From NCBI GenBank assembly GCA_045116995.1, contig JBGUMU010000034.1, positions 15,854 to 79,853 on the forward strand: a stretch of 64,000 bases of DNA, in the 5' to 3' direction. The translations under genes and the position numbers were made by a program. Under the pieces are notes generated by a model. That model did not search any database and was not told the origin of the DNA. It worked only from the letters and a program-made list of their open reading frames with translations. This DNA comes from Bacilli bacterium (GTDB lineage: Bacteria > Bacillota_I > Bacilli_A > RFN20 > CAG-826). Below, in pieces: positions 11,093 through 28,814 of the stretch (position 1 is the stretch's first letter; the number at the start of each line of letters is the position of its first letter).

Positions 11093-12193
11093 TTAGGCTT
11101 GAGCATCAAGTGCTGGATCAGAACTGATTAATTTAACGCCGTTAGGTGTTGGTGTTTGAGCACCATCAGTAGCGTTACCGAGTCTGAATTCAAGAGATAA
11201 TTTCCAGTCTCTTGTTAATTCGGCATATGTTGTTGATGTACAGGAGATATCCTCGCCTTCTAACCATAAACGGACAACGATTCTTGTGTAGCTTGTAACG
11301 CCAGCATCAATGTCTGTGGCCGCTTGAGCAGCAGCGTTTGGATTTGTAACGTTACCAAGGGCATGTTCGCCTGAAACAGCTTGTGGTGTAGCACTTGGAG
11401 CGTTGTAATATTTTGTACCTTCTTGATATGTACCAGCAGCTGGACTTTGTCCAAAGCGGTCTGTATAGTATCCGCTGACAGAAGTTGAAGCTGTAAATTC
11501 TGATGTATCAACTTCGGTTCCTTTTTGATTTTGGTTGAAGGCACCATTTAAGCCTAAAACTGTCTTTAATACGAGGCCGCTATCATCGGCTGCTGTATTA
11601 GCGGTTGTGCCAACTGCTAATAAGCCAACTCTCCATGCCAAGCCTTTATTTGTAACAGCTGTATAAGCAGTTCCTGCTTCGTTTTTGTATGTTAAGTTAC
11701 ATTTTGACATATAAAGCACTTGGTCATCAGCAGCAGAAGTAGCTTTAATGTAGAATGAATAGTCAACGTATGCATAGCAAACATTGCTTGTGCTCACAGT
11801 TGTGAAGCCATATGCGCTATTGAAATTGTTGTCATATGCAGATTTGCCTGCTGCGGCGTGATCTTGAGAAGTGCCTTCTGTATAGAGAGTGTAATCATCG
11901 GTTTTGGCATCGCCATCACCTTTAGCACTAGTTGTGTAACGGAAAGCTTTACCATCGACTGTAGAAGCTGGTTCAAGGACAGCAGATCTGCTTTGATTGA
12001 TTGATTCGTTGTAGTTTGCTTCTTGGTTTGTTTCAGCAATTAAGAGGTTGCTGGAAACCCTTGTTGTAACTGTCATACCATCAACTTTGACGGAATTGTT
12101 TGTAGAGAACCATGCAACTGTACCTGTGACAGAAGCGGCTGTGGATAATAATAGGACTGCGAGTGCAGGAACTATAATTTTTGTCTTTTTCAT
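11093..12193 (-). CDS. Secreted TasA/camelysin-like protein with SipW-cognate-type signal peptide; candidate major fibre subunit (paralogue P0)
   Basis: MKKTKIIVPALAVLLLSTAASVTGTVAWFSTNN can be compared with CalY GGGTFAFFSD and TasA GGGTWAAFND. Composition is rich in T/S/A/G/N/Y. C-terminus is VRLWLEGED...WKLSLEFRLG. The gene is monocistronic with its own leader and terminator. ATG 12193 is preferred over GTG 12229. Confidence 0.65.
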   Translation of the reverse strand: MKKTKIIVPALAVLLLSTAASVTGTVAWFSTNNSVKVDGMTVTTRVSSNLLIAETNQEANYNESINQSRSAVLEPASTVDGKAFRYTTSAKGDGDAKTDDYTLYTEGTSQDHAAAGKSAYDNNFNSAYGFTTVSTSNVCYAYVDYSFYIKATSAADDQVLYMSKCNLTYKNEAGTAYTAVTNKGLAWRVGLLAVGTTANTAADDSGLVLKTVLGLNGAFNQNQKGTEVDTSEFTASTSVSGYYTDRFGQSPAAGTYQEGTKYYNAPSATPQAVSGEHALGNVTNPNAAAQAATDIDAGVTSYTRIVVRLWLEGEDISCTSTTYAELTRDWKLSLEFRLGNATDGAQTPTPNGVKLISSDPALDAQA

Positions 12194-12214
12194 ATAATTT
12201 ATTAAACTCCTTAT

Positions 12215-12253
12215 AAACGACAAAATCACTCAACTTATCTTCTAAACTGAGTG
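12215..12253 (-). promoter_or_regulatory. Terminator-like hairpin in the 5' leader of P0 (possible attenuator or riboswitch expression platform)
   Basis: On the minus strand CACTCA-N15-TGAGTG is followed by ATTTTGTCGTTT. This sits immediately upstream of the AAGGAG RBS (12207-12212) and ATG 12193. Confidence 0.4.
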
Positions 12254-12632
12254 GATGATAGATTTTGCATCACATGTCGCCAATAAGAAATGGGACGTTC
12301 TTATCGCTTTCGCTTTGCACAAATAGTATAGAAAAAAATCGTAAAAATAGTCAAACATTATTTTTGTATACAAAGTATAAAACTCGCGAAAAAACAGCAA
12401 ATAAATAAGCTAAAACGGTTTTGAAGGCCGATAACAATGCCACGACATCAAACATTAGATCCAGGATGTGTTTTCCTTCAAATAAACTGTTGAAAAGACT
12501 TATGAAATAAGAATACTGTTTAACCTATCTTTACGTGCATATTTTGAGCGTTATGTGCAAAATTAATTTGCCATTTAAGAAAGAGATATTATAAAATAAC
12601 CTCGTATATACCACTAATTGGTGTTCGTTAAT

Positions 12633-13001
12633 ATGAAAAAAATCAAATTACCTTTAATCATTGCTGGTCTAGTGTTGGATGTTGGTGTTACCATCTTCCT
12701 TTTTGTCATTAGCATCATGATATTAGTTAAGGTTATCCCGGCTGCTACTATCAACGAAGCTATTAATAACTCTCAGAACTGGCCATTAATTCATTACCTA
12801 TTACAAAATCCAACAGTTTATCTCGTTGCGTTTGTCATTCCATTATTTGTTCTCTTGGCATTGAATGTTATTGGCTTAATTATTTACGTCAAGAAAACAA
12901 GTGGTGCCAAACCAGCACAACTCGATGATCTCTCTGAAGAACAAAAAGAAGCTCTCAGACAAGAACTTCTCAAAGATCTCCAAGGCGAGAAAAAAGAATA
13001 A
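12633..13001 (+). CDS. Small membrane protein (3 TM) with charged C-terminal tail
   Basis: MKKIKLPLIIAGLVLDVGVTIFLFVISIMILV... with C-terminal LSEEQKEALRQELLKDLQGEKKE. ATG 12633 is preferred over the upstream TTG. Confidence 0.6.
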   Translation: MKKIKLPLIIAGLVLDVGVTIFLFVISIMILVKVIPAATINEAINNSQNWPLIHYLLQNPTVYLVAFVIPLFVLLALNVIGLIIYVKKTSGAKPAQLDDLSEEQKEALRQELLKDLQGEKKE

Positions 13002-13008
13002 TACACAT

Positions 13009-13027
13009 AGCGCGCAAGCGCTTTTTC
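13009..13027 (+). terminator. Rho-independent terminator
   Basis: AGCGC-GCAA-GCGCT hairpin (13009-13022) followed by TTTTT. Confidence 0.7.
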
Positions 13028-13111: not shown

Positions 13112-13180
13112 TAAAAAGCAAAACCGGAGCAATCCGGCGACGCAAAACTATAGGGTCTTAGTATAAGATAGCCAGCAACC
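13112..13180 (+). promoter_or_regulatory. Candidate c-di-GMP-I (GEMM-I) riboswitch aptamer
   Basis: AAAAAGCAAAACCGGAGCAATCCGGCGACGCAAAACTATAGGGTCTTAGTATAAGATAGCCAGCAACC. It contains GCAAAACC, a CCGGA-GCAA-TCCGG hairpin with a GNRA loop, GACGCAAAAC, a second hairpin (CTAT..CTTA-GTA-TAAG-ATAG), then AGCCAGCAACC. The order and wording resemble the GEMM-I consensus (GGCAAACC-hairpin(GAAA)-GGGACGCAAAGCC-hairpin-AGCxGGGxxACC). Not verified with a covariance model. Confidence 0.45.
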
Positions 13181-13214
13181 TCAATCGATTAACTTTGATT
13201 GAGGTTTTATATTT
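13178..13214 (+). terminator. Leader terminator 1 (overlaps the 3' end of the candidate aptamer)
   Basis: ACCTCAATC (13178-13186) pairs with GATTGAGGT (13197-13205), followed by TTTTATATTT. Confidence 0.6.
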
Positions 13215-13354: not shown

Positions 13355-14224
13355 ATGTACGATTATGTTTTGGTAAGAAGACGTAGAAGAAGAAAGATCG
13401 CTGCATTAGTCAGTCTCATCTGTTCAATCGGCGTGACTGCATTAATCATCGTTTCATTCCTCGGACAATACACCGGTACTTTTACCGTTTCTTTAACCAA
13501 CTCATCTGTTAGATTGTCACTATCAGAAACTCAAAGTTTCGCTAATCCAACATCTTATCTTCGTATCGATAAGCTCAACTTATTCGAAGAGTCTACGTAT
13601 GTTAACATCAAAGACGAAGGTTTAGATGATGAAACAAAGGCTTATGACTGTGGCCAACACGAAATCAAAATCAAAAATAAAGATGGTAGTGTAACCACAA
13701 AGCAAGTCCTTTCCTATTTCAAGTACACATTCTATGTGGGTAACTTAGGGAGCAAAGCGGCGCAGTACGACATGCAAATTAAATTGTTGGAATGCTCGCA
13801 ATCCACGGATGGTACTAATAGAACTTTGGATGATACTTTAAGAGTTATGATTTATGAAAACGATATCGATGATGATAACAATTCGGGGGTTCATAATGTA
13901 GACGTCTATGCTAAAGAGAACGCTATAGGAAACATTGATATCGATGATGGCAACACAACACGTGAATTTATTTCTTCTCGTCCTAGAAGAGATTATTTAG
14001 GACCACAAAAAGAAGATGAAGATCACAAATTAGCTATTTCTTTCGAGAAATTGGATCTTATTCACACATACAGCCGAGATGGTTTCTTCGCAGGCCAAAT
14101 CCGTAGATATACATTAGTCTCATGGTTAGAAGGAGAGGATAGAGATTCTCTCAACAAACAAGGTACCCCTGTTGGTGCTACTTTAAAATTAGGAGTTGAA
14201 ATAACTGCTTATGAAAATGAATAA
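13355..14224 (+). CDS. Membrane-anchored paralogue P1 of the TasA-like family (degenerate cleavage motif; candidate anchor or base subunit)
   Basis: N-terminal RRRRRRK plus a TM (IAALVSLICSIGVTALIIVSFL), then QYTGTFTVSLT in place of GT-x-A-W-Y/F. It shares the mid-protein LRVMI box and the C-terminal SWLEGEDRD...LKLGVEITA with the paralogues. Confidence 0.6.
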   Translation: MYDYVLVRRRRRRKIAALVSLICSIGVTALIIVSFLGQYTGTFTVSLTNSSVRLSLSETQSFANPTSYLRIDKLNLFEESTYVNIKDEGLDDETKAYDCGQHEIKIKNKDGSVTTKQVLSYFKYTFYVGNLGSKAAQYDMQIKLLECSQSTDGTNRTLDDTLRVMIYENDIDDDNNSGVHNVDVYAKENAIGNIDIDDGNTTREFISSRPRRDYLGPQKEDEDHKLAISFEKLDLIHTYSRDGFFAGQIRRYTLVSWLEGEDRDSLNKQGTPVGATLKLGVEITAYENE

Positions 14225-15173
14225 AATTATAATTCCTGCTGCAATGTTAGCAGTGGGTGTCGCGCTCGTAGGTTCTGTTTCTAGTACCTTAGCGTGGTAT
14301 CAATACTCAACAAAAGCACAAGCAGCGTATATTGGAACCAGCGCCGGAGTTTCTGAAAACTTACAGATTCAAAATAAAAATGGTGATTGGGTTTCAAATT
14401 TATCTTCCTCCGATATCGCAGATTTAATGGAAACTGGTGTTGGTTCTGAACTCACACCAATCTCTCCTGCTATCGAGGGTAATTTAGATGCTACTTCTGC
14501 TCTACCAAATGGCGGTTTCTATAATAGCGTTGAAACTGGCGTTGGTGGTGTTGAAACATATGGTGATCGTAGAGCAAATAATAAGAATTACGTTGAATTC
14601 ACTTTAAAGATTAGATATTTGAAAACAAATTATGCCAATCCAAGCGATCCTTATGGTTATGCAAATAAAGCTTTAAAATTAGTCGATTTAACTATTCTCG
14701 ATGGATCCACAAACGCAGATTTGTACAAAGCTGTTAGAGTTCATATCTCTTCCGCTTCAGGAAACTACTTATTTATGAAGGATTCTACCACCAATGAAAC
14801 AGTCGAAACCGCCACATATGGTAAACTTGATACCGATAGTCGTGATGGTTTAGACACAGGCTGGGCGTATGAATGGGAATCTTCCCCTGAAATCGTTTAT
14901 GGTAAAGATGGATCAATTCAAACAGCGTACAATTCAAACTATTCCGCTGGTTTAAATAAACAAATCGGTGAACTTCCTGCAAGTAATGAAAACGGTTTAG
15001 CCGTGAAAGTTACTATTTGGCTTGAAGGATGGCAAAAATTATCCGGTGTTCCAACCGGTAACGCTGAAGCATCATCTGGTAGTTCTGCTATGTGGGATCC
15101 AACCGTTTATGCCAACAAGCAATTTAAGGTTGGTATGAGATTCCAAGCTGATGATATTCAACAAAATCCATAA
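14211..15173 (+). CDS. SipW-type signal peptide protein, TasA-like paralogue P2
   Basis: MKMNKIIIPAAMLAVGVALVGSVSSTLAWYQYSTKAQA, then AVRVHIS, then TIWLEGWQ...FKVGMRFQA. Overlaps P1 by 14 nt. Confidence 0.65.
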   Translation: MKMNKIIIPAAMLAVGVALVGSVSSTLAWYQYSTKAQAAYIGTSAGVSENLQIQNKNGDWVSNLSSSDIADLMETGVGSELTPISPAIEGNLDATSALPNGGFYNSVETGVGGVETYGDRRANNKNYVEFTLKIRYLKTNYANPSDPYGYANKALKLVDLTILDGSTNADLYKAVRVHISSASGNYLFMKDSTTNETVETATYGKLDTDSRDGLDTGWAYEWESSPEIVYGKDGSIQTAYNSNYSAGLNKQIGELPASNENGLAVKVTIWLEGWQKLSGVPTGNAEASSGSSAMWDPTVYANKQFKVGMRFQADDIQQNP

Positions 15174-15212
15174 TTGATATTTCGTCAAGGATTCGTTTTA
15201 TTTGGAGAATAA

Positions 15213-16370
15213 ATGATGAAATTCAACAAAGTTAAGTTTGTTGTAGCTGCTTTGTCCATGTGCTGCGGAGCCGCCCTCTTGGGTTCGATTTCAAGCACGA
15301 TTGCGTGGTATCAATTTACCACACGTGTATCTGCTGTTATCGTTGGTGCCTCGACAGGTGAGAAGAGCAATTTGAAAATAAGGATTAAAGGGACCAATAA
15401 TTGGAATTCCGACTTGACCTTTCATGATATCAATGAATATCTTGCGTCAGTCAACAAAGGCCAACAAATTACTCCAATTACTTCAGGATTTATGAATGCA
15501 GATGATCCTATTAAAAAAGATAATAACGATCAAATGATTTTTTACCAAAATCCAGGCGAAGAAGATATTGAAAGAGTACCTTATGATAGCCCTTCCTGGA
15601 GAAGAGCGGATGATTCCATGTATGTCTCAATTCCTTTAGAACTTTCATATATCCAAAAAGTCGAAGGAAGTGAACAATTCTTAGAAAAAGATGTGTATAT
15701 CTCTGATTTGCTAATTCAAGAAGATCGCAAAAATAGCATTAATGCTAAAAAAGATTTATCTGAAGCAATCCGTGTACACATCAGCACTTACCAAAGCAAC
15801 GACAAACAAAATACTGAGTTGAATAGATTAATCTCCAAAAATGGTGGAACCATACTGACCGAAGGCCATTTAGATATTGGTGGTGATGGTGATTTAGATG
15901 AATACATCGAAGGTCATCACGGACCAGACTATGGTTTTATTGATGAAGACGATACCGAAAGATACTATGTCACCTATGGTGAAGGTGTCCAAACAGCTTA
16001 CAGTAATCAATATGACGTTCAAGATAATTCATATAAGACACTTAGTGGTCAAACCATTAATGAAAAGGTTTATCCAACAGTAGTCAAATCTATTGATGAT
16101 TCCAACGTTTTAGATGAAGAAAGTTTTGAATATCAAAAAGAAGGCGAAACCGCCAAAACATCTAAATGTATTGGCAAGACAGTAGCCTTTGAAGGTGAGC
16201 AAAATGAAGCTTACCTCAATGTCGTTATGACGATTTGGGTTGAAGGATGGCAACCATTCCCTTCCCCAACGGCCGCTGATCCGAATGCAAAATCACCTAT
16301 CTGGAATGCATCGGACTATATTGGCTCAATGTTTGATGTCGGCATTGAATTTGCCGTACAACAAGACTAA
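15213..16370 (+). CDS. SipW-type signal peptide protein, TasA-like paralogue P3
   Basis: ..ALLGSISSTIAWYQFTTRVSA, then AIRVHIS, then TIWVEGWQ...FDVGIEFAV. Confidence 0.65.
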   Translation: MMKFNKVKFVVAALSMCCGAALLGSISSTIAWYQFTTRVSAVIVGASTGEKSNLKIRIKGTNNWNSDLTFHDINEYLASVNKGQQITPITSGFMNADDPIKKDNNDQMIFYQNPGEEDIERVPYDSPSWRRADDSMYVSIPLELSYIQKVEGSEQFLEKDVYISDLLIQEDRKNSINAKKDLSEAIRVHISTYQSNDKQNTELNRLISKNGGTILTEGHLDIGGDGDLDEYIEGHHGPDYGFIDEDDTERYYVTYGEGVQTAYSNQYDVQDNSYKTLSGQTINEKVYPTVVKSIDDSNVLDEESFEYQKEGETAKTSKCIGKTVAFEGEQNEAYLNVVMTIWVEGWQPFPSPTAADPNAKSPIWNASDYIGSMFDVGIEFAVQQD

Positions 16371-16488
16371 AAAATCCAGATAAACTCCATAAATATTTAT
16401 TAAACTTTTGAATAAGAAAATATCAGCAAAGTCTCATATACATATACACACATGAGGCTTTGCTGGTGTAAAATGAAAGAAAGGGTAT

Positions 16489-17697
16489 ATGAAAAAGACA
16501 ATTAATCCATTAAAACTAGTTATCGGTATTCTCGGCTTATCGTCAGTCGCTGCTTTAGTGGGCTCAATAAGTGGTACCGTTGCGTGGTACGCATATTCAA
16601 CGCGTGCTCTTATTTCATATACCGGCACTTCTGCGCAATCTAGTGCGCAACTTCAAATTGGCTTGAGAGCTACAGAACGTGTTCCGTTGCTTGACGAAGA
16701 TCTTTTAGTTGATGAAGTAATCGAAGAAAATGGTTATTTTTACTACTTCACACATCTCGGCTCAGGCGGTATGCCATCAAGTGTCATTAATAAATATCTC
16801 GGTGGTAGTGGCTTTGCTACAACTACATTGGAGCCTGTATCAACTTATAGTTATGATGGCAGTCAACCATTTGTTTTGAAAAACTGCCCAACAACAAACG
16901 AACCAGAAGAACGCTCAAATGCGCCAACATCAAAGTATGTTAAGATTCCATTTGCGTTCCGTGTGTTCAATACAATTTCAAACGGTCAAACCGTAACAAC
17001 ATCAGTCGCAAATAAAAACATTTATTTAAGCAATGCTGTCGCACAAGTTAGCAATGAAAAGCTTGGTATCGGTGAAGCAATCCGCTTGTTTGTTGATAGA
17101 ACTGATAATTTAAGCGACTATATTTTTAATCCAAACGCTGCAACTGATGGCTCAACCAAAACCGGTGGTGTCTTAGATCTTTCCGGTAATGGATATTTCG
17201 ATTATGACAACAATCCTTCTCATGGTGATATATATCTCCATGAATACATCTATGGCGATTATTCTTATAAGACTGGCTATGGATTAAATAGTGGCTACGT
17301 AAGTCAAGGTGCAAACGATAGCGACTATCATGACATTAACAAAACAGGTGTTGATACCACAGAAGAAGGATTTGATGGTACAACATTTACAGCTAAACAC
17401 CGTAGAGGAACAATGCATTTAGACTACAGCAATGGCGAAGAATTGGAAGACTACGTGACTTTAGGAACGGCTTCTTACCTTGGCAAGAGTTCTGTATTCC
17501 CAACCAAAACCAATGGTGTCCTCTCTGGTAATAACTTTGTTTGTAAAACAGCTGAATCAAACGTTTCCGAAAAGAATATTGGTTCATTTGACTTAACTGT
17601 TTATATAGAAGGCTGGGATCGTGCCACAATCAATCAACATGGTAATGAATATTTCAATCTCGGCTTAACATTCGAAATCGGCGCAACAAATAGCTAA
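16489..17697 (+). CDS. SipW-type signal peptide protein, TasA-like paralogue P4
   Basis: ..ALVGSISGTVAWYAYSTRALI, then AIRLFV, then TVYIEGWD...FNLGLTFEI. Confidence 0.65.
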   Translation: MKKTINPLKLVIGILGLSSVAALVGSISGTVAWYAYSTRALISYTGTSAQSSAQLQIGLRATERVPLLDEDLLVDEVIEENGYFYYFTHLGSGGMPSSVINKYLGGSGFATTTLEPVSTYSYDGSQPFVLKNCPTTNEPEERSNAPTSKYVKIPFAFRVFNTISNGQTVTTSVANKNIYLSNAVAQVSNEKLGIGEAIRLFVDRTDNLSDYIFNPNAATDGSTKTGGVLDLSGNGYFDYDNNPSHGDIYLHEYIYGDYSYKTGYGLNSGYVSQGANDSDYHDINKTGVDTTEEGFDGTTFTAKHRRGTMHLDYSNGEELEDYVTLGTASYLGKSSVFPTKTNGVLSGNNFVCKTAESNVSEKNIGSFDLTVYIEGWDRATINQHGNEYFNLGLTFEIGATNS

Positions 17698-17708
17698 TGA
17701 GGTTTAAC

Positions 17709-18815
17709 ATGAGAAAAAGAAATCTAATCATTTCTCTCATATTAGGAACTGCAGCACTTACTGTGCTGGCTATTCCTGTGGCCACAATTGCATGGTATGC
17801 AAGTAGCGATCGTCTTCAAGTTAATTCAATTGATTTGGATTTAAGAACAGACGAATCTGTTGGCTTACTTATTGGTACAAGCGCTGATGAAGAAGCTTTT
17901 AAAGAAAAACTTGAAACAAAAGACTTAAAAAAAGTTGGTGAGTTTGTTCCTACTTCCAGTATGTTCCAAGATAGTTGGATGAGCACTAAAAGTGATTTAC
18001 CATTATTCTATGATTCAACATCCGATGTTGCTCCAGATGGCATTCCATCTCTAGAAGTTAGTAATAAAGGCTTTTTCCAACAAAAGTTATATCTTTTAAA
18101 CAACATTGATTATTATGTCACACTAGATACTGAGCAATCCTTTGTCACAAGTGACAAAAACTCTAATCATTTACGCGCGCAGGCTCTTGTGGGTAAAGTC
18201 GGTTCATTAACTGTTGATGAAATCGAAGAAAAATTAAACAACTTAGAGAACAGTATTAGATTCTCCATCCTTGTCAATACTCCAAATTACTACAAATACT
18301 TCATTGTTAATCCAAACAAAAAGGAAAACGAAGTCACATATTACGCTGGTAGATTAGACAACAATGGTGATGGTTATTTCGATACTTTTCCAGCTCTTGA
18401 TAATAACAACCAAGTAATTGAAAAAGAGATTATCTATGGTGAAATCGAAAATCGTAATCAAATCGCTTATGACAATCCTCAAAGCGATACATTAGCTCCT
18501 ATTGAAGATTATGATCCGTTTAGACACAATTTCTTTGGTAACTCATTCGAAGGAAAGAGCAAAGAAACTGCCTACACTTACAATGAACAAAATTCACTCC
18601 AAGCGGGTGTTAAATATAAAGAAGAACCATCTATCTCATTAGATGAAATCGCTTCCGATGACAATCCATTATTAATCCCATGCTATAACGGTGTTCCTAC
18701 CGAAATAGTGTTATCCATCTATTTAGAGGGTTGGGATTTAGATTGTTACAACTCCACAATGGGAGCGAGCTTCAATGCACAATTATCTTTTAAATTATTA
18801 AGGGGGATTATCTAA
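17709..18815 (+). CDS. SipW-type signal peptide protein, TasA-like paralogue P5
   Basis: MRKRNLIISLILGTAALTVLAIPVATIAWYASSDRLQV, then SIRFSI, then SIYLEGWD...FNAQLSFKL. ATG 17709 (GAGG 6 nt upstream) is preferred over ATG 17697. Confidence 0.65.
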   Translation: MRKRNLIISLILGTAALTVLAIPVATIAWYASSDRLQVNSIDLDLRTDESVGLLIGTSADEEAFKEKLETKDLKKVGEFVPTSSMFQDSWMSTKSDLPLFYDSTSDVAPDGIPSLEVSNKGFFQQKLYLLNNIDYYVTLDTEQSFVTSDKNSNHLRAQALVGKVGSLTVDEIEEKLNNLENSIRFSILVNTPNYYKYFIVNPNKKENEVTYYAGRLDNNGDGYFDTFPALDNNNQVIEKEIIYGEIENRNQIAYDNPQSDTLAPIEDYDPFRHNFFGNSFEGKSKETAYTYNEQNSLQAGVKYKEEPSISLDEIASDDNPLLIPCYNGVPTEIVLSIYLEGWDLDCYNSTMGASFNAQLSFKLLRGII

Positions 18816-18816
18816 T

Positions 18817-20340
18817 ATGGCTTCTTATTTCGAATATTTAAGGAAAATGTTCCTTTCAGTCCTACAACACATCGGTACATTCCTTTATAAGGCATTTATC
18901 TCACCATGGACTGATTTAGGCCGTAACTTTGCAGTCTATAACGACTACATGGGTGAACACTGGGCAACATTCGGTCCAGTCGGCTGGATTTTCTGGGTTA
19001 TTTTCCTATTATTATTCATCGGCTTAATCGCTGGTCTATTATTCTTACTTATCGTCTTCTTCCGTAAGTATGTACGTTTCGTGCGTAAAGAATTGGACAA
19101 AGAAGAATTATCTAGACAAGTTGATAGACTTAACTATGAGTTATTCCAAGCCATCCAAGAAAAAGATAAAATCCTCAACCTTAAAGTTGGTTATATGGGT
19201 TTACGTGGTGGTGAATCTCAATTAGATAAAGAAAGCCAAGAAATCGTTGAAGAAGTCTCCTCTAGATTCCCAAAACTTATCCATGTTGATAACAAATATA
19301 GAGGTTCTAACATGGATATTCCAAATAGACCAAACTTATCCCTCGAAGAATTATGTAATGCCTTCCGTAACTTCGCTGCATCTCAATTGAAGTTATATTA
19401 TAGGGAAGACGTTATTAAACAATTATTTGCCGGTATGGCCGCCTCTAAGTTAATCATCTTAGAAGGTATCTCTGGTACAGGTAAAACATCCTTAGCGTTC
19501 GCTCTTGGTAAATTCTTCAATTTCGATAGTGCGATTATTCCAGTTCAACCATCCTGGAAAGATAGAAGTGAATTATTAGGTTACTATAACGAATTCACTA
19601 AGAAATTCAATGAAACTGAATTCTTAAGAGCGTTATACACAACCACCTATAGACAAGATTTAGACGTCATCGTCCTCGATGAAATGAACTTAGCCCGTAT
19701 TGAATACTACTTCGCTGAATTCTTATCCATCATGGAAATGAGAGATCCTAACGATTGGGTCATCGATTTAATCCCAGCCCCAATGGCTAATGACCCAGTT
19801 AACTTAAAAGAAGGTAAACTCTTAATTCCTCAAAACGTCATCTTCTTTGGTACCGCCAATAACGATGATAGTACATTCACTATCTCTGATAAGGTCTATG
19901 ACCGTGCGGTCTCTATCTTCTTTGATGATAAGGGCAGACCATTTGAATGCGCTCCTCAAGAAGCCATGAACGTTCCATATAGTCAAATTAGAAAACTATA
20001 TGATGATGCGATTACCCAATTCCCAATCTCTAGAGATATGTCCGACAAGTTCGAACAACTCGATAACTTTGTCATTAAGAAATTCAAACTCGCCTTTGGT
20101 AACCGTATCTTAAAACAATTAGAAACATTTATCCCAGTCTACGTGGCCTGTGGTGGTAAAGAAGTCGATGGTTATGACTTCATCTTCACTAATAAGGTCT
20201 TAAAGAAATTCGAATCTCTTAACATCGCCTTCTTAAAAGACGAATTAAAAGAACTCGATGCTCAATTAGACAAAATGTATGGCAAGGGTAACTTCAAAAT
20301 GGCCCATAGCTATATCGATAACTTAATTAAAAACAACTAA
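18817..20340 (+). CDS. Membrane-anchored McrB-family (AAA_5-type) AAA+ NTPase
   Basis: N-terminal hydrophobic hairpin (GWIFWVIFLLLFIGLIAGLLFLLIVFF). Walker A LEGISGTGKTS (19465-19491). VIVLDEMNLARIEYYFAEFLSIME can be compared with McrB DEINRANLSKVFGE. FFGTANNDDSTFTISDKVYDRA can be compared with McrB GxMNTADRS...D.AxRRRF. Confidence 0.8.
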   Translation: MASYFEYLRKMFLSVLQHIGTFLYKAFISPWTDLGRNFAVYNDYMGEHWATFGPVGWIFWVIFLLLFIGLIAGLLFLLIVFFRKYVRFVRKELDKEELSRQVDRLNYELFQAIQEKDKILNLKVGYMGLRGGESQLDKESQEIVEEVSSRFPKLIHVDNKYRGSNMDIPNRPNLSLEELCNAFRNFAASQLKLYYREDVIKQLFAGMAASKLIILEGISGTGKTSLAFALGKFFNFDSAIIPVQPSWKDRSELLGYYNEFTKKFNETEFLRALYTTTYRQDLDVIVLDEMNLARIEYYFAEFLSIMEMRDPNDWVIDLIPAPMANDPVNLKEGKLLIPQNVIFFGTANNDDSTFTISDKVYDRAVSIFFDDKGRPFECAPQEAMNVPYSQIRKLYDDAITQFPISRDMSDKFEQLDNFVIKKFKLAFGNRILKQLETFIPVYVACGGKEVDGYDFIFTNKVLKKFESLNIAFLKDELKELDAQLDKMYGKGNFKMAHSYIDNLIKNN

Positions 20341-20350
20341 TTAAAACACC

Positions 20351-22597
20351 ATGAAAAAAACGAGTAACAGCAATAAGCAGATCAATAGAGCCTACCATAG
20401 TGCGCTTAAGAAAATCATCAAAGGTTCCCACGAAAAGGAAATCTATGATGCTTTAAGCGCGGGTAAGAACTCTTATTTAAGACTTGATCGTTTAGCGTCT
20501 TCCTCGTTTGATAAGAGCTGGATTGAAGTGATTGAAGGCTGTATCTTCGATTTAGGCGAAATCATCGCTAATCCAAGACAACACACTAAAATCACTGGCA
20601 ACTTAACACCAGTTGAACTCGCTAAAAAGGTCACATCAGAATCTGTCCAACACTTAGCGAGCCATACTCAATATATTAAAGAAGTCGATGAATACGGAAA
20701 CGTCATCCCTTCTAAAATCTTATCCATGAGTAGTGATGATGATTTACATACTTATGAAAATAGATTTATCGCTACATTCGTAAGAAGATTATTCTTATTC
20801 ATTTCTAAACGTTATGAATTCGTTTCTAAATTCGCCGAATTACATAACGAAGAAATCCTATACTTTAAAAACAAATCCATCGTCGATGGAGCGGAAGTAG
20901 AAATTGAAACAAAGATTAAAGTCTCTTATAAGAACGAAAACGAAGAAACTAGAATCAACAGTGGCTACGTTGAAAGAATCAAACAAACTAGAGACTATAT
21001 TTCCTATTTCTATAACTCTCCATTTATGAAACAAATGAAGAATGAAAAGGATGTTAGAAATCCAATCGTTCAAACAAACATCATTAGAAAGAACCCTAAA
21101 TATAGACACTGCTACGAAGTGTATAGATTCATCGAAACCTATGACCGTTTAGGCGTGAACTATAAGGTCGATGAAAACTATTCCATGTTCAATAACGAAG
21201 AGTTGGCGGAACTCAATAGAACATTATTCGCTAACTACGTGACCTTAAGAGGTAATGATGGTAGTAGAGAAAAGAAAGTTAACACTAAAGTCTATAAGCC
21301 ACGTATCTTAACAAGCTTAGAAGATGAATCATTTATATATGGTCCATTACTTGAAGGTCCAATTTCTTTTGCACGTGTGGATGATGGTTATCAAGCCTAT
21401 TTAGATAGCAAGATTAAAAAAGACTTACCACTCCATCCAACTAAGAAAGAAAAAGAATATTACGAAGATGAATACGCTGCGAAGAAAGAAAATCAACAAG
21501 ATCAAAAAGCTAAAGCCGATTTATTAAAACGCAGACAAAAAGAAGTTAACGCTTTTGAAAAGAAAGTGAAGAATATCTTAGCAAAACGTGAAGAAGCGAG
21601 ATTAAAACTCATCGAAGCGGAAAAGAACGCCATTAGACAAGAAGAAGAAGACTTAGTCAACGCCATGAGAAGAGAAATCATTGCTGCTTCGCAAAAAGAC
21701 GTTACTGAGATTGTTAACGCTAATAATGGTGGCAAACCATCTAAGAAAGCCGCTAAAGAAGAAGTTAAGGAATATAATCCAACAGTTTCATTTAATGACG
21801 CTGCGGATGAGATTTGGCCACAATTAAATAATCCAACTCCATTACCAGTGGAAGAAAAGCCAGCACCTCAACCAGTTAAACCAGTAATAGTGGAACAACC
21901 AGTTCAAGCAGAATCTGCCCCTGAAGCTAAACCAGCGCCAGCACCTGCTAAAGTTGAAAAGGTCTACATACCAACTGTTAGCTTCAACGAAGCCGCAGAC
22001 GAAATCTGGCCACAACTTAATAATCCAACCCCAATGGCTAAACCAGTGGAAGAAGTTAAAGTGGCCCCAGCCCCTGCTAAGAAGGCTAAAGTGGTTAAAC
22101 CTGCTCCAGTCGTGGAACAAGCACCAACTGAACAAAAACCAGTGGAAGCTAAACCAGCCCCACAACCAGTCAGAGTGGAAAAGGTTTATGTCCCAACAGT
22201 GAGCTTCAATGATGCTGCTGATGAGATTTGGCCACAATTAAATAATCCAAAACCACTTCCTAAAGAAGAGCCTAAACCAGCGCCAGTGCAAAAGCCTGCT
22301 CCTAAAAAAACAGAACCAGCGCCAGCGCCTGCCAAGGAACCTGTTAAGGAAGAAGCAAAGCCAAAAGGCAAACCAATTAAAAAGTATTTCTATAGAAGTG
22401 ATGGTACAGTGGCCATCATCTATAAGAAAGATAAGGCTCATAAGGAAGAAAAACCTGCTCTTACAAAGGAAGAGCCTAAGAAAGAAGAACCTGTTAAGGA
22501 ACAGCCAAAGGCTGAACCTAAAAAGGAAGAAAAGAAAGAAAACAAACCACAAAATGTGGTGAAGAGTAAAAAGACCCGTAAGAAATTTAGAAAGTAA
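20351..22597 (+). CDS. McrC-position partner protein: N-terminal globular domain (DUF2357/McrC-N-like guess), coiled-coil, Pro/Ala/Lys-rich tail with three conserved 19-aa motifs
   Basis: 748 aa with no TM. TYENRFIATFVRRLFLF resembles the ENRF box I associate with McrC/DUF2357 partners (from memory). There is a K/E-rich coiled-coil around aa 380-460. PTVSFN(D/E)AADEIWPQLNNP occurs three times in a PAPxPxK-type linker. No PD-(D/E)xK nuclease motif is recognisable by eye. Confidence 0.5.
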   Translation: MKKTSNSNKQINRAYHSALKKIIKGSHEKEIYDALSAGKNSYLRLDRLASSSFDKSWIEVIEGCIFDLGEIIANPRQHTKITGNLTPVELAKKVTSESVQHLASHTQYIKEVDEYGNVIPSKILSMSSDDDLHTYENRFIATFVRRLFLFISKRYEFVSKFAELHNEEILYFKNKSIVDGAEVEIETKIKVSYKNENEETRINSGYVERIKQTRDYISYFYNSPFMKQMKNEKDVRNPIVQTNIIRKNPKYRHCYEVYRFIETYDRLGVNYKVDENYSMFNNEELAELNRTLFANYVTLRGNDGSREKKVNTKVYKPRILTSLEDESFIYGPLLEGPISFARVDDGYQAYLDSKIKKDLPLHPTKKEKEYYEDEYAAKKENQQDQKAKADLLKRRQKEVNAFEKKVKNILAKREEARLKLIEAEKNAIRQEEEDLVNAMRREIIAASQKDVTEIVNANNGGKPSKKAAKEEVKEYNPTVSFNDAADEIWPQLNNPTPLPVEEKPAPQPVKPVIVEQPVQAESAPEAKPAPAPAKVEKVYIPTVSFNEAADEIWPQLNNPTPMAKPVEEVKVAPAPAKKAKVVKPAPVVEQAPTEQKPVEAKPAPQPVRVEKVYVPTVSFNDAADEIWPQLNNPKPLPKEEPKPAPVQKPAPKKTEPAPAPAKEPVKEEAKPKGKPIKKYFYRSDGTVAIIYKKDKAHKEEKPALTKEEPKKEEPVKEQPKAEPKKEEKKENKPQNVVKSKKTRKKFRK
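21779..22249 (+). repeat. Three in-frame copies of a 57-nt unit encoding PTVSFN(D/E)AADEIWPQLNNP
   Basis: Copies at 21779-21835, 21971-22027 and 22193-22249. The peptide is identical except for one D/E, while the DNA differs at many synonymous sites. Confidence 0.9.
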
Positions 22598-22600
22598 TTT

Positions 22601-23479
22601 ATGAGCGAAGTAGTTAAAGAAAAACGCGTCAAGAAACCAAAAAGTAAGGCCAGAAAAATCGTGGAATGGATCCTTACTGGTATTTTCCTCGTGATTTTCG
22701 GTGTCGTCATGGCCGCTCAAATTGATGGTATGGTCCATAAGAATGATCACTATGGTCAACAAATTAGATTTGGCTATGGTACCTTCATGGTTAAGACCGA
22801 TTCTATGAAACCAGTGTACGGCATTGATACTGCTTTAATTACTTACTTAGAAGACGCTGATAAAATCTACGACCGTTTCCAAAAGGGTGAAACTGTCGAT
22901 ATCACATTCGTCCATGTTCCAGTGGCTAATAACGAATATACCTCTCCTAGAGATAATCCAGAATTAACCGTTAGAACTAATGCTAGTAGTGATAAGCAAG
23001 TGGACGGCATCCCTATGACCCATAGAGTGAGAGAAATCCACATCAATGAAAGTGTCGCTAAAGGTAAAGGTCGTTACACATTCATCACCGCTGGTATCAA
23101 TACCAGAAGTGAATGGATGGGTTGGCAAGAAGGTCAACCAGATATGGTTATTAACCAATATCAAGCGATCACAGAAAAAGAACTATTAGGTAGAGTGGTG
23201 GTTAACTCTCCATTCTTAGGTGGTGTCTTCTCATTTGTGAGTTCTGTATTTGGTTTATTAATCTTATTACTCATCCCAGCATTTTATTTAGTCATCACTA
23301 GTGTGATTGATATATTTAAGGCTTATAAAGAGCCTGAAGAAGCTAAAGAAGGAGCAGGAGCCACACCAAATAGTGGTGGTACCGTTACTCTTTCCGAAGC
23401 GGACAAAAAGAGACTTAAAGAGCAACTATTAGAAGAAATGATTGCCAAGAAGAAAGGAGAAAGCAATGAAAACAAGTAG
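22601..23479 (+). CDS. sipW: SipW-like (S26B, ER/archaeal-type) signal peptidase I with an enlarged extracytoplasmic domain
   Basis: N-terminal TM. VKTDSMKPVY can be compared with SipW SGSMEP (Ser codon 22802-22804). QKGETVDITF, then MTHRVREI compared with VTHRIVDI (catalytic His). A C-terminal second TM (FGLLILLLIPAFYLVITSVIDIF) as in SipW. The GDNN Asp box reads AGINT. Confidence 0.75.
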   Translation: MSEVVKEKRVKKPKSKARKIVEWILTGIFLVIFGVVMAAQIDGMVHKNDHYGQQIRFGYGTFMVKTDSMKPVYGIDTALITYLEDADKIYDRFQKGETVDITFVHVPVANNEYTSPRDNPELTVRTNASSDKQVDGIPMTHRVREIHINESVAKGKGRYTFITAGINTRSEWMGWQEGQPDMVINQYQAITEKELLGRVVVNSPFLGGVFSFVSSVFGLLILLLIPAFYLVITSVIDIFKAYKEPEEAKEGAGATPNSGGTVTLSEADKKRLKEQLLEEMIAKKKGESNENK

Positions 23480-25007
23480 AGGTCGATTAACTGCAGTTAT
23501 CATTACTGGTATCCTTCTCATCGTCGCCTTTGTCCTCGCGGGTATGGCGATGATTGGTCATGTCTTCGGTGATAACACCCCATTAGCGAATATCATGAAC
23601 GCTTCAGCCATTGGTATGACTGTTTTATTCGTTAGTAGTGTTTATCTTTTAGTTAGTAATCTTTCCATGATTAAGACTTTACAAGATGATAACGAATATA
23701 ACTTAGGTGTTAGAAGTGCCTTTAATAACATGTATGCCTTCCAAAAACGTGTGGAAGTCCTTTCTAGATTAAATAAAATCACCAAGAGACAAGAACACAT
23801 TATCGCCTTTACATTCTCCTCTCTTGTTGTTTCTCAAAACGTTAATAGAAACCATGAAATCTATTTAATCAACAATCACATCGCTAACTTCTTAAATGAT
23901 TTACCAACAAAGATTAACGCTAAGAAGAGAGACTTTGTTTATGCCTTCTCTCGTGGTTCTTTCTTAATCTACTGTGCAAAACAAAATGAACAATCCATTC
24001 AAAACATCTGCGAAATCATCGCTAAAGATATTTATGACTTTGGTGAACAAAACTGCCGTCATATCTGGGTCCAACCATTCTTCGGTGTCACCCGTGTCTA
24101 TGATAGTGAACTTTTAACTCACCAAATTGAAAACGCATTATTAGCTAGAGATAATTCTGAAAGAAACTTTGAAACAGTCACTTATTATCAAGAAACATTC
24201 CGTAAAAGTGTGGCCGCTAACGACATTGAAGAATTAACTCAAGCTTTAGAAAATAAAGAATTCGTTGTCTACTATCAACCAAAGTTTGACTTAGCTAAAA
24301 GACAATTTATTTCTTCAGAAGCTTTAATTAGATGGAACTCCAAGAAGTACGGCTTATTAGCGCCTACTAAGTTCTTAAATAAAGCCGAAGCTATTGGTTT
24401 AATCCATGATATTGATATCTATGTCTTAAGACAAGTTTGTGAAGATTTAAATGAACTTATTAGAAGAGGTAGAAGAGTCTTACCAGTCTCCGTTAACTTC
24501 TCCTTATATGAATTCTATAGTGCGAACTTCTTAGATACCATCATGGGTATCTTAGATGAATTCCATGTTCCAACAAATTTAATTGAAATTGAAATTACAG
24601 AAGCGACATCACAAGCTAACCAATTCTTATCCATCTCCATTATTAAGAAACTTAAAGAAAACGGTATTCGAGTCTTAATGGATGACTTTGGTATTGGTTT
24701 CTCTAACGTCGGTAACTTAAAGAAGATTCCATTCGACGTTGTTAAGATTGATAAATCATTTATTGATGGCATTGTTAACGACACTAAATCACGTGAAATC
24801 GTGAGATTCTTAATTGGTCTTTGTAAGATCAACGGTATGGAAGTCGTTGCCGAAGGTGTTGATAACAAAGAACAAGTTGAAATATTAAAGAAGGCGAAGT
24901 GCGATACAATTCAAGGTTTCTATTATTCTGAAGCTCTTGAAAAGAAAGCTTTCGAAAGATTCTTAGATAATAACCCATTTGAAAAGAAGGAGGGCGTTAA
25001 AGCATGA
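23466..25007 (+). CDS. Membrane-bound EAL-domain c-di-GMP phosphodiesterase with degenerate GGDEF-like middle domain
   Basis: Two N-terminal TMs. The EAL set appears complete: YYQPKF, SEALIRW, SVNFS, EIEITE, MDDFGIGFSN, VKIDKSF, VAEGVD, IQGFYYS. The GGDEF position reads SRGSF. ATG 23466 (AAAGGAG RBS) overlaps the sipW end by 14 nt. Confidence 0.85.
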   Translation: MKTSRGRLTAVIITGILLIVAFVLAGMAMIGHVFGDNTPLANIMNASAIGMTVLFVSSVYLLVSNLSMIKTLQDDNEYNLGVRSAFNNMYAFQKRVEVLSRLNKITKRQEHIIAFTFSSLVVSQNVNRNHEIYLINNHIANFLNDLPTKINAKKRDFVYAFSRGSFLIYCAKQNEQSIQNICEIIAKDIYDFGEQNCRHIWVQPFFGVTRVYDSELLTHQIENALLARDNSERNFETVTYYQETFRKSVAANDIEELTQALENKEFVVYYQPKFDLAKRQFISSEALIRWNSKKYGLLAPTKFLNKAEAIGLIHDIDIYVLRQVCEDLNELIRRGRRVLPVSVNFSLYEFYSANFLDTIMGILDEFHVPTNLIEIEITEATSQANQFLSISIIKKLKENGIRVLMDDFGIGFSNVGNLKKIPFDVVKIDKSFIDGIVNDTKSREIVRFLIGLCKINGMEVVAEGVDNKEQVEILKKAKCDTIQGFYYSEALEKKAFERFLDNNPFEKKEGVKA

Positions 25008-25747
25008 TCATGATTATTGGTAGCCAACATGATGATATCCTCTATTTCGAAAGTGTTATCACTAACAAAAGAGAAGAACTCATCATGGGCAAATTCAAAG
25101 TGACCATTGGTACCATCTTTAACCAAGCGGTCATGTTAGTGGATCAAGTTAAATCTAACTACTTAAGTAGCGCTCTTACTTTATATTTGATTGAAAAATA
25201 CTTCGTCATCCTTGTTTTAGTGGTGGGCCGTTGTGTGGCTTACACGAAAGACTTAAAACCATTAGACATCGTTATCTCTAAGCATGTCGTCTTAGGGGAC
25301 GTTGACCAAGTTAATGAAGATAACGTTAAATACGGACAAATCCCAGGCTTTGAACAAGTCTTTGATGCCTCTGAAGACGTTGTCTCCTATATTGAAAGTG
25401 CTTTTGAAAAGAGAACATACTCTGTCTTTAAAGAAGCTAACTTCATTTCCACATCTGTGGACTACCATAAGAAAGAACAAATCTATGATATCCATGAATT
25501 TGATCATATCTTAGGCTATGACACTAATGTGGTCTTTGACACCAATACCGGTGGTGTTGCTGTCGCTTGTAACTTAACTAAAGTGCCTTTCGTCTCGATT
25601 AAAGTCGTGGAAAGATACTTAGAAAAGAATAGTGATGTCAATACATACTTAAAAGCGATGAAAGAATATGTGAATATCGGTAAAGCTGTTGTTACCTGTA
25701 TCGGTGATATTGGCCGTAACGAAATCATCACAGAAGGAGGTAAGTAA
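25004..25747 (+). CDS. MTA/SAH-nucleosidase (PNP_UDP_1) homologue with degenerate active site
   Basis: Collinear with E. coli MtnN: MIMIIGSQHDD vs MKIGIIGAMEEE; LKPLDIVIS vs LKVGDIVVS; KYGQIPGFEQVF vs EYGQLPGCPAGF; VPFVSIKVVERY vs VPFVVVRAISDV. The catalytic or ligand positions (E12, SGIGK, TGSAGG, EME, SD197) read D, QVKSN, VGRCVA, DTN, VE. The ATGA overlap with the upstream stop is at 25004-25007. Confidence 0.6.
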   Translation: MIMIIGSQHDDILYFESVITNKREELIMGKFKVTIGTIFNQAVMLVDQVKSNYLSSALTLYLIEKYFVILVLVVGRCVAYTKDLKPLDIVISKHVVLGDVDQVNEDNVKYGQIPGFEQVFDASEDVVSYIESAFEKRTYSVFKEANFISTSVDYHKKEQIYDIHEFDHILGYDTNVVFDTNTGGVAVACNLTKVPFVSIKVVERYLEKNSDVNTYLKAMKEYVNIGKAVVTCIGDIGRNEIITEGGK

Positions 25748-25748
25748 T

Positions 25749-28700: not shown

Positions 28701-28814
28701 GCTGATGCTGATGTCTTACTACAAGGCTTCTACTTCTTCCGTCCATTAGAAAAGCAAGCTTTAATTGAAGCCTTAAGAGGAACGAATAAATATAAGAAAG
28801 CTGATGAAGAATAA
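25749..28814 (+). CDS. Large membrane-anchored signalling protein: two degenerate GGDEF-like domains, a GAF-like segment, a Cys motif, and a C-terminal degenerate EAL domain (probable c-di-GMP receptor)
   Basis: Two N-terminal TMs. The first GGDEF-like block has GEDNK in the signature position. The second is YLLLLRIDNLEQLVEEHGSEGTITILRDFSKRV...YYTNQFLAMLF. CYKTMYGLDAPCKDCP is C-x11-C-x2-C. The EAL-like end reads LQPMV, GAELLLR, CDQYTGRY (for DDFGTGYS), VKISR (for KID), VGVEN (for EGVE), LQGFYF. ATG 25749 (GGAGG RBS) is preferred over the 25689 extension. Confidence 0.7.
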   Translation: MAFYNRNRSIKIFFRFVTIFPIVFLNVLVIVMTLLTFFYARTDNFAFFLAILIFGGVMIILYIVQTVYIMTQFRKVFINGLYGVTVSNFENIARNENDFREYPSKQYIEINALNEHVDTLRKSLLGATIIPSNNDFDDIELDYIDKEKNLITFESFKRELENIIFKSQNYRNIIIETYYEFEEEGLTKKNIDYVLKVLKDNFFDYESPLYVLGEDNKSVYLYLPRIDSLSKIREQLETCMRSASISKRLTEGITPLTAHFSVVCYPYSDVPELIPDLRYAKRQGNDIFFYLPNRLNTLKNNAILRYSTNLNSMSKIIAPLSTMRFGSAYTKENTKIIQETIKTTAQYFGINYAGIIALDAVNKRYVIAYQANDDEINPLSHDGTVNQALISIMDETKDDNGSYYFSIRNHANNALGRHLDRIGLESGFYYVIKSNDVVQGVIYFFNKNKELKFDSYIQESMLMLCTRISSFLISEKRDVEIESSFDEIDAILKVADFSTYRVSADDFTLLNGSQTMKNLFPEIKYGEKCYKTMYGLDAPCKDCPLLTGNKKMVKYGRDNYETSLLLSDHHNIYRVLSIKNIYSHKSHGRYNQDLLINSFHTLIENLEDIYAMNGKGYLLLLRIDNLEQLVEEHGSEGTITILRDFSKRVKKAHRGLENIYYYTNQFLAMLFYEYGQTDILDECEKIYAIAKNVDKSADYVLDITFLPVSYPRVYPNATSLIKQADVFSTRGHYDVNKDFIYFDESNYSRSANREEYILSIIKKAFSDKTYEINLQPMVNAGDKQIYGAELLLRISDDYRNVAMRTDEVVNVAAKHNQIGIISHALLDFTASLYKEYGAMFFSSLGFRRFGLNTDYSFFTDKNFAKDIKKYIESLKLPKHFIAFEIPENDVSTHIDEFKQIGKVLRDLNIVLVCDQYTGRYISVEILKEIGFDEVKISRNLVNHIDSDNQRYNALKALLQLIRRFNMKASIVGVENIDQYLLIKEADADVLLQGFYFFRPLEKQALIEALRGTNKYKKADEE

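Follow-up and report, generated by a model that had tools for sequence, protein, structure and literature searches.

Strand-exchange biomatrix fibres, a group comprising TasA, AbpA, the threads, the cannulae, AbpX and Tafi, have only recently been recognised as cross-domain and biofilm-building. In the published loci of this TasA superfamily, the gene for a major subunit is accompanied by genes for minor subunits, for tip or anchor proteins, for a dedicated signal peptidase I and for cyclic di-GMP (c-di-GMP) enzymes, and AbpX-type proteins have been described as acidic. Here, a locus from a Bacilli bacterium of the RFN20 lineage (GenBank assembly GCA_045116995.1, contig JBGUMU010000034.1, positions 15,854 to 79,853, i.e., a stretch of 64,000 nucleotides that is called the window below) is compared with the B. 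subtilis tapA-sipW-tasA operon, the AbpA bundling pili, the Saci_0406 threads, the CanA cannulae, AbpX and Tafi. The locus contains four tandem paralogous genes, A to D, and two further relatives, E and F. With confidence that is evenly balanced, we propose that A-F encode the structural subunits of a peptidase-processed heteropolymeric surface fibre that works like the TasA-type systems in uncultured rumen and gut Bacilli. The locus would thus add a large unannotated family from bacteria about whose surfaces almost nothing is known.

The window locus resembles the TasA superfamily in its Sec signal, the SipW/ER-type (endoplasmic reticulum-type) peptidase in the operon, acidic, probably beta-sandwich proteins whose amphipathic N-terminal stretch is conserved, the presence of several paralogous subunits, a probable anchor, a probable calcium site and adjoining c-di-GMP enzymes. 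Its organisation, with minor subunits, a tip or anchor, signal peptidase I and c-di-GMP enzymes, matches that of the published loci except for one pair of genes inside the operon, encoding a McrB-like AAA+ NTPase and a DUF2357 protein, which has not been reported for the published TasA-type loci compared. It also differs in subunit size (320-400 residues vs. about 180-260 in the TasA superfamily), in having five or six fixed subunit classes, and in its peptidase, which reads GIN rather than GDN and carries a long conserved cytoplasmic tail. The fixed architecture of five to six subunits, the probable calcium loop and the c-di-GMP link lead to testable predictions about the order of assembly.

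Two other kinds of system invite comparison. The Bsa locus of C. perfringens (sipW-bsaA...) and the sipW-tasA-calY locus of B. cereus are likewise operons of Firmicutes in which a SipW peptidase is encoded together with two or more paralogous subunits of a matrix or pilus. However, their subunits belong to the TasA/camelysin family, which the window family does not, and intermolecular isopeptide bonds have been reported for BsaA. The minor pilins of type IV pili and type II secretion offer an analogy only, with four or five ordered paralogues, an N-terminal motif and an adjoining NTPase. In contrast to these pilins, the window locus has no class III signal (G↓F...E5; the arrow marks the cleavage site here and below), no prepilin peptidase and no PilB-type ATPase, and its proteins, probably beta-sandwiches, lack the N-terminal helix of pilins. 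Both type IV and sortase pilins were rejected as candidates by direct reading, which found neither the G↓F..E5 motif nor a C-terminal LPXTG, and no prepilin peptidase or sortase was matched among the scanned neighbours. The uncultured orders RFN20, RF39 and ML615J-28 have been reported to include sortase-less and peptidoglycan-deficient lineages.

The four paralogues A-D lie on one strand and span 14211-18815; together with F and E, they are located as follows.

14211..15173, + strand: paralogue A, 320 amino acids (aa), the shortest member, fast-evolving; N box 14280-14369, AVRVHI 14730-14747, WLEGWQ 15018-15035, last strand FKVGMRF 15123-15143.
15213..16370, + strand: paralogue B, 385 aa; N box 15291-15380, AIRVHI 15765-15782, calcium-like loop GHLDIGGDGDLD 15864-15899, WVEGWQ 16236-16253, FDVGIEF 16332-16352.
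16489..17697, + strand: paralogue C, 402 aa; N box 16573-16659, AIRLFV 17077-17094, GVLDLSGNGYFD 17167-17202, YIEGWD 17602-17619, FNLGLTF 17653-17673.
17697..18815, + strand: paralogue D, 372 aa; N box 17781-17873, SIRFSI 18252-18269, GRLDNNGDGYFD 18348-18383, YLEGWD 18720-18737, FNAQLSF 18771-18791.
13355..14224, + strand: paralogue F, 289 aa, with a 3' end that overlaps the start of A.
11093..12229, - strand: paralogue E, 378 aa as listed, with GTVAWFSTN and WLEGED boxes.

The initial annotation had described A-D as four tandem paralogues of 320-402 aa sharing three boxes, and all four open reading frames, their lengths and every motif string it quoted were recovered. The N-terminal boxes of A to D read, in order, SSTLAWYQYSTK..., SSTIAWYQFTTR..., SGTVAWYAYSTR... 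and ATIAWYASSDR...; the middle box is the AVRVHI-type string and the C-terminal (C) box the WLEGWQ-type string. The start of E is probably an internal MKKTK. F has an Arg-rich N-terminus and one hydrophobic span, carries G-T-F-T-V in place of T-x-A-W-Y, and retains WLEGED and the last strand LKLGVEI.

Identity among the window paralogues is just 19-34%. Pairwise BLASTP nevertheless links A to B over the full length (4.6e-27), B to C (1.5e-13) and C to D (4.5e-7), and profile-profile comparison of the orthologue sets by hhalign gives probabilities of 100% for A-B, A-C and B-C, 99.8% for C-D, 98.9% for A-D and 98.5% for B-D, with 200-345 aligned columns. E is joined to A-D at 95-97%, mainly via its N-terminal region, and the profile link of F to A-E is weak (74-84%). 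Among the 65 open reading frames of at least 100 aa in the window, the C box occurs in six and the N and C boxes together in five, and shuffled proteins gave 0.0 co-occurrences of the two boxes per set, ruling out a chance resemblance of the boxes.

The further claim that the inserts between the boxes are unrelated proved too strong, as the alignments of A-B, B-C and C-D extend over 295, 333 and 345 columns, respectively, i.e., most of the length. Additional shared elements are a Y-G box, a conserved Pro and a G-x-L-D-x(3-6)-G-x-x-D box, the last of which lies at 15864-15899 in B, 17167-17202 in C, 18348-18383 in D and residues 203-215 in A. This fourth family-wide box resembles a DxDxDG calcium loop (D-N-N-G-D-G-Y-F-D in paralogue D) and is probably calcium-binding. 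In D, two cysteines that are not present in A, B or C flank the EGW box, one of them (C350) invariant and the other (C329) at least 90% conserved among D orthologues.

A survey in which one genome per species was scanned yielded 22 loci, all in rumen or gut metagenome-assembled genomes labelled Bacilli, Bacillales, Erysipelotrichaceae, Bacillota or Ca. Enteromonas. The conserved order is E, a small membrane protein, F, one to three A/B-class genes (the number differs among genomes), C, D, the ATPase, a large protein and the peptidase, followed by an EAL protein, a PNP_UDP_1-like protein and a second EAL protein. A C-class and a D-class gene occur in every locus examined, F in nearly all and E in most, on either strand; the leanest locus (L025) holds E, F, one C-like gene and D. 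The operon genes overlap or nearly abut, and no terminator-like site was flagged within the stretch from F to the EAL gene. Two such sites were found before F (13009-13022 and 13177-13206), both 3' of the small membrane protein gene. An attenuating terminator after A, which would mark a major subunit, was also sought and not found.

Each class has its own orthologue in a fixed order across genomes and keeps the boxes, and the paralogues are therefore ancient; the duplications long predate these species. This pattern fits the proposal that the paralogues are distinct subunits. Identity to the nearest relatives is 45-54% for A, 42-44% for C and 43-48% for E, compared with 65-66% for B, 69-71% for D, 68-85% for F, 84-91% for the peptidase and 88-95% for the ATPase, which corresponds to a roughly twofold higher rate of evolution in A, C and E than in B, D and F. 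The alternative suggestion of antigenic diversification fails as the main story, given the age of the duplications, but retains some merit in the faster evolution of A, C and E and the varying copy number of the A/B class. A recent origin of the genes by tandem duplication, with immune or phage pressure turning the copies into antigenic variants of a single subunit, is highly improbable: the same rates and copy numbers would suit it, but A/B, C, D and F each have an orthologue in the same order even in genomes at 24-35% identity, the window copies share only 19-34% identity, and recent duplication is contradicted for C, D and F by their class-specific orthologues.

Beyond these loci, the family is large. 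Homologues in a collection clustered at 90% identity number 156 for A and 218 for D, none of them named and none with a Pfam domain, and a profile built from all classes finds 4,507 metagenomic clusters (50% identity) at E<=1e-3, 1,463 at 1e-10 and 471 at 1e-30. When the six window proteins and 130 representatives of the profile-matched clusters (19-42% identity to A) were scanned against Pfam and NCBIfam, no family was assigned. Searches of PDB sequences with the paralogue profiles gave nothing meaningful, and no paper on this family or on a TasA-like locus with a McrB-like ATPase was found in the literature; the family is ready for a profile and a name. In A numbering, A28, W29, R176, G231 and G273 are invariant across the 130 representatives, and L51, P83, G204, L206, D207, D215, Y230, E272, W274, F305 and F311 are at least 90% conserved. 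The boxes are thus maintained in distant homologues, as the reading in the initial annotation required. The only Pfam matches among the 130 relatives are stray EF-hand (two relatives) and FG-GAP hits, which fit a calcium loop.

Among the 130 representatives, the predicted cleavage site has Ala at -1 in 100%, Thr or Ser at -3 in 99%, Trp at +1 in 100% and Tyr or Phe at +2 in 98%, which makes it a signal-peptidase-I-type site, T/S-[VIL]-A↓W; a SipW-like peptidase is present in the operon in all loci. Conservation extends about 25 residues beyond the predicted cleavage site with beta-strand periodicity, positions 36-45 alternating between hydrophobic and polar residues. In their mature form, the proteins have an acidic isoelectric point of 4.3-4.6 and contain 11-17% Asp+Glu.

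The family layout, (S/G)T(V/I/L)A↓W(Y/F)QYSTR...G(T)S...NLxI, is the same as those of TasA, GGGTWA↓AFND...FA(A/S)GTLDL, with which it shares T-x-A followed by an aromatic residue, and AbpX, GLTYA↓QWSETLSLSATISTGSLDV (GLTYA↓QWSE...GSLDV). Common to all three are small residues at -3 and -1, an aromatic residue at the mature start, an amphipathic stretch and G-[ST]...L-x-[LVI]. The resemblance of the family signal to GGGTWA↓AFND was recognised by eye alone.

The enzyme expected to cut at this site is encoded in the same operon.

22601..23479, + strand: divergent SipW/ER-type signal peptidase I, 292 aa; TDSM (Ser) 22796-22807, THR (His) 23018-23026, GIN 23093-23101, tail motif 23390-23440.

In an alignment of 15 orthologues, Ser68 (T-D/N-S-M) is invariant and His141 (THR) is at least 90% conserved, and the protein ends in a C-terminal membrane span. 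The SipW model NF046067 is matched by 15 of 15 orthologues (best E 2.8e-17) and the archaeal signal peptidase I model TIGR02228 by 11 of 15 (best E 2.3e-14), in both cases with scores under the curated cut-offs. These motifs, the span and the model matches together identify the protein as a divergent SipW/ER-type signal peptidase, which presumably is active on the subunit precursors.

AlphaFold2 models of A (from 87 homologues) and D (from 79 homologues) are both confident and beta-rich, with a predicted local distance difference test score (pLDDT) of 85.8 and a predicted template-modelling score (pTM) of 0.81 for A, and a pLDDT of 84.8 and a pTM of 0.82 for D. Residues 1-42 of A and 1-41 of D fall below 50. 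This low-scoring stretch includes T-x-A↓W-Y, the most conserved motif of the family, and the amphipathic segment that follows. The initial annotation had read the post-cleavage segment as a conserved donor strand, and the segment is indeed conserved, amphipathic and left unplaced in both monomer models. The shared boxes fall on equivalent core strands of the two models (E47-54, E175-181, E263-272 and E305-315 in A; E45-51, E187-195, E335-344 and E359-367 in D): the end of the N box forms the first core strand, x-R-x a central strand, x-E-G-W the end of a long strand and F-x-x-G-x-x-F the last strand.

A Foldseek search of the A model against 350,542 PDB chains ranked two strand-exchange fibre subunits first, a striking outcome in a set of this size: 7pnb, the thread of Saci_0406, has an E of 0.018 with a probability of 0.75, and 8aur, the fibre of TasA, an E of 0.028 with a probability of 0.82. 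The other listed matches are mostly beta-sandwiches or jelly-rolls, e.g., lectins, the furin P domain, capsids and CBM4. For a TasA-like fold, A thus offers two marginal matches at E of about 0.02, and D offers none, as detailed below.

If A-F build a fibre, the precursors would be exported via a signal peptide of the Sec type with T-[VIL]-A↓W-[YF] as its invariant junction, and the SipW-like peptidase of the operon would cut after the invariant Ala, exposing the conserved amphipathic N-terminal strand. This strand would insert into a neighbouring subunit, as in the TasA, AbpA, thread and AbpX fibres, and the acidic beta-sandwich body would bind calcium at the DxDxDG-like loop. As the operon also encodes EAL proteins, c-di-GMP would be the likely regulator of the fibre. 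More speculatively, the A/B class may supply variable, copy-number-variable, fast-evolving exposed units, C and D may be universal minor or tip-adaptor units, and F, which has no A↓W site, may be a membrane-proximal anchor or base.

Several results weigh against this proposal. The matches of A to 7pnb and 8aur are weak, with template-modelling scores of 0.23-0.38, and the monomeric TasA structure 5of1 lies outside the top 50 matches of A, suggesting that the fibre matches were possibly helped by alignment of the long unplaced tail with isolated donor strands in the cryo-EM chains. The Foldseek search with D returned no TasA-like match; its best hit has an E of 0.2, and AbpA ranks 20th at E 2.2. 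No match to the TasA model PF12389 emerged, either from the six window proteins or from the 130 relatives, and the SipW-cognate signal model TIGR04088 (NCBIfam) matched neither the six proteins at E<=1 nor the 130 relatives at E<=0.1.

Sequence homology to the TasA superfamily past the signal peptide is likewise not detectable. For this comparison, the TasA sequence used was checked against 8aur (residues 28-261 identical), 120 family members were collected, and 111 TasA-family sequences were compared. When each class and the 130-member alignment were compared with these 111 sequences by hhalign, only 21-22 signal-peptide columns aligned, at 27-70%. The suggestion that the last strand parallels the TasA strand IKLQFSFEATQ was accordingly not confirmed, and the single AbpX sequence gave nothing against the family. 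However, in a control, the TasA profile reached only 10% probability against AbpX, an accepted relative, and the negative hhalign result is thus weak evidence owing to low sensitivity.

The peptidase raises a further objection. The expected Asp of the G-D-N box is not conserved, the box reading G-I-N (G-T-N in one orthologue), which makes its activity uncertain. This Asp is conserved in Sec11/SipW enzymes. In addition, the proposal does not account for the McrB-like AAA+ protein and the DUF2357 protein next to it, both of which belong integrally to the locus, as no NTPase is needed for fibres of the TasA type. Polymerisation, cleavage and surface location enter the proposal by inference. On balance, kinship with TasA is only weakly supported, and membership in the superfamily is unproven.

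The same structural searches would also suit secreted or surface-retained, non-polymerising lectin-like beta-sandwich binders that share a sorting signal and differ in ligand specificity, an alternative that we consider unlikely on the whole. The conserved N-terminal segment would then be a mere recognition element for the operon peptidase, and the ligands might be, e.g., rumen plant or host glycans. Concanavalin-type lectins, CBM4 and CBM32 follow close behind the fibres in the Foldseek results of A (E 0.15-0.8), D matches beta-sandwich domains from the N-termini of glycosidases, large repeat domains are inserted in relatives, and polymerisation enters the argument by inference. However, the lectin matches are no stronger than the fibre matches, and conservation about 25 residues past the cleavage site with strand periodicity is more than a recognition element needs. 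Both models leave this segment unplaced, and the fixed order of five or six classes in every genome suits an assembled structure better than independent binders.

The inserted domains themselves are found in relatives of A/B (P0439, P0499, P0466 and P0471), in which 200-320 residues lie between the EGW box and the last strand and consist of helical repeats or W-x-G-x-A-W-V-E-G-G-D-G repeats, as if these proteins displayed cargo domains. Homologues can therefore be seen to accommodate inserts hundreds of residues long within one loop. Long relatives were also considered as natural two-domain proxies for strand insertion in cis and were rejected for this purpose, as P0380, which has a second signal peptide internally, is apparently two adjacent genes read as one, and the other long relatives contain loop inserts.

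The proposal of a TasA-like fibre must also accommodate the two genes that lie between D and the signal peptidase in all complete loci.

18817..20340, + strand: membrane-anchored McrB-like AAA+ NTPase, 507 aa; Walker A 19465-19488, Walker B (LDEMNLA) 19675-19695.
20351..22597, + strand: partner protein, 748 aa; conserved, DUF2357/McrC-like N-terminal part of about 400 aa and a K/P/E-rich tail.

The ATPase consists of one membrane span followed by an AAA_5 domain (Pfam AAA_5, 24.1 bits vs. a cut-off of 22). It matches the AAA+ domain of E. coli McrB (6hz4, E 6e-4) with the Walker B region aligned, including the DE-x-N-x-A signature, and the PADLOC model PDC-M26A at 4e-40, and no gene of the locus is better conserved (62-95% identity in a comparison of 19 loci). 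Of 15 partner orthologues, 3 matched DUF2357 (best E 1.7e-5), a weak link for the window copy itself. The tail of the partner contains three PTVSFN[DE]AADEIWPQLNNP repeats (21779-21835, 21971-22027 and 22193-22249) spaced by about 64-74 residues.

The pair thus resembles McrBC in that an AAA_5 core adjoins a partner with a McrC-type N-terminal domain (DUF2357). It differs in that the ATPase has a membrane anchor where McrB has its N-terminal DNA-binding domain, and in that the partner carries a long K/P/E-rich repeat tail. A scan of 15 partner orthologues matched no nuclease family, whereas McrC has a PD-(D/E)xK nuclease. The pair also lies inside a surface-protein operon rather than a restriction locus, and from sequence it looks like the co-option of a restriction-type motor in such an operon. 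Its conservation raises the question of what job an AAA+ motor does in a surface system.

One possible answer, which we regard as improbable, is that the locus encodes an undescribed, NTP-coupled (nucleoside triphosphate-coupled) surface-filament machine, in which the assembly, anchoring, remodelling or retraction of SipW-processed strand-exchange subunits would be controlled by a membrane-anchored AAA+ ring and its McrC-like partner. If so, NTP coupling would be seen for the first time in a TasA-like fibre system, McrBC would have been co-opted outside defence, and the machine may help rumen Bacilli with reduced walls and few sortases to adhere or move. In this case, the AAA+/McrC-like pair may dock on a tail motif, LSE(E/A)(D/Q)K(K/E)(R/A)L(K/R)(E/Q)(E/Q)LL, that is common to the peptidase (23390-23440) and the following protein.

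12618..13001, + strand: small membrane protein, 127 aa; cytoplasmic tail motif LSEEQKEALRQELLKDL 12930-12980.

In the peptidase, the cytoplasmic tail motif reads LSEADKKRLKEQLLEEM (tail peptides LSEEDKKRLKEELLEEM). It has no other occurrence in the six-frame translation of the window and is repeated three to four times in two peptidase orthologues (L021 and L022). The motif may be a docking peptide.

The anchored ATPase and the shared tail motif also bear on a different account, in which the N-termini of A-F stay uncleaved and the proteins form a single-pass membrane hetero-oligomeric envelope complex, e.g., an adhesion, motility or export machine, that is coupled across the membrane to the AAA+/DUF2357 pair and uses the peptidase-like protein as a scaffold instead of an enzyme. 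In its favour are the membrane anchoring and exceptional conservation of the ATPase, the GIN in place of GDN in the peptidase with its tail motif common to the small membrane protein, and the reports that the related orders RFN20 and ML615J-28 are without sortases and that some of their families are without peptidoglycan. However, the invariant -1 and -3 residues that precede Trp are small, as is classic for a signal peptidase I site, conservation of the peptidase extends to its catalytic Ser and His motifs, and every peptidase orthologue matches the SipW model, which makes an uncleaved complex quite improbable.

The proposed fibre operon continues 3' of the peptidase with three genes that are kept there in most loci.

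23442..25007, + strand: membrane EAL protein of c-di-GMP phosphodiesterase type, 521 aa, conserved in position (Pfam EAL 5.9e-67).
25004-25747, + strand: PNP_UDP_1-like protein, a conserved operon gene.
25689-28814, + strand: protein with a C-terminal EAL domain, 1041 aa, a conserved operon gene.

The first 780 residues of the 1041-aa EAL protein match nothing. At the other end of the locus, E lies on the opposite strand in the window and its three closest relatives and on the operon strand in more distant genomes (L001, L009-L014 and others), which points to a local inversion.

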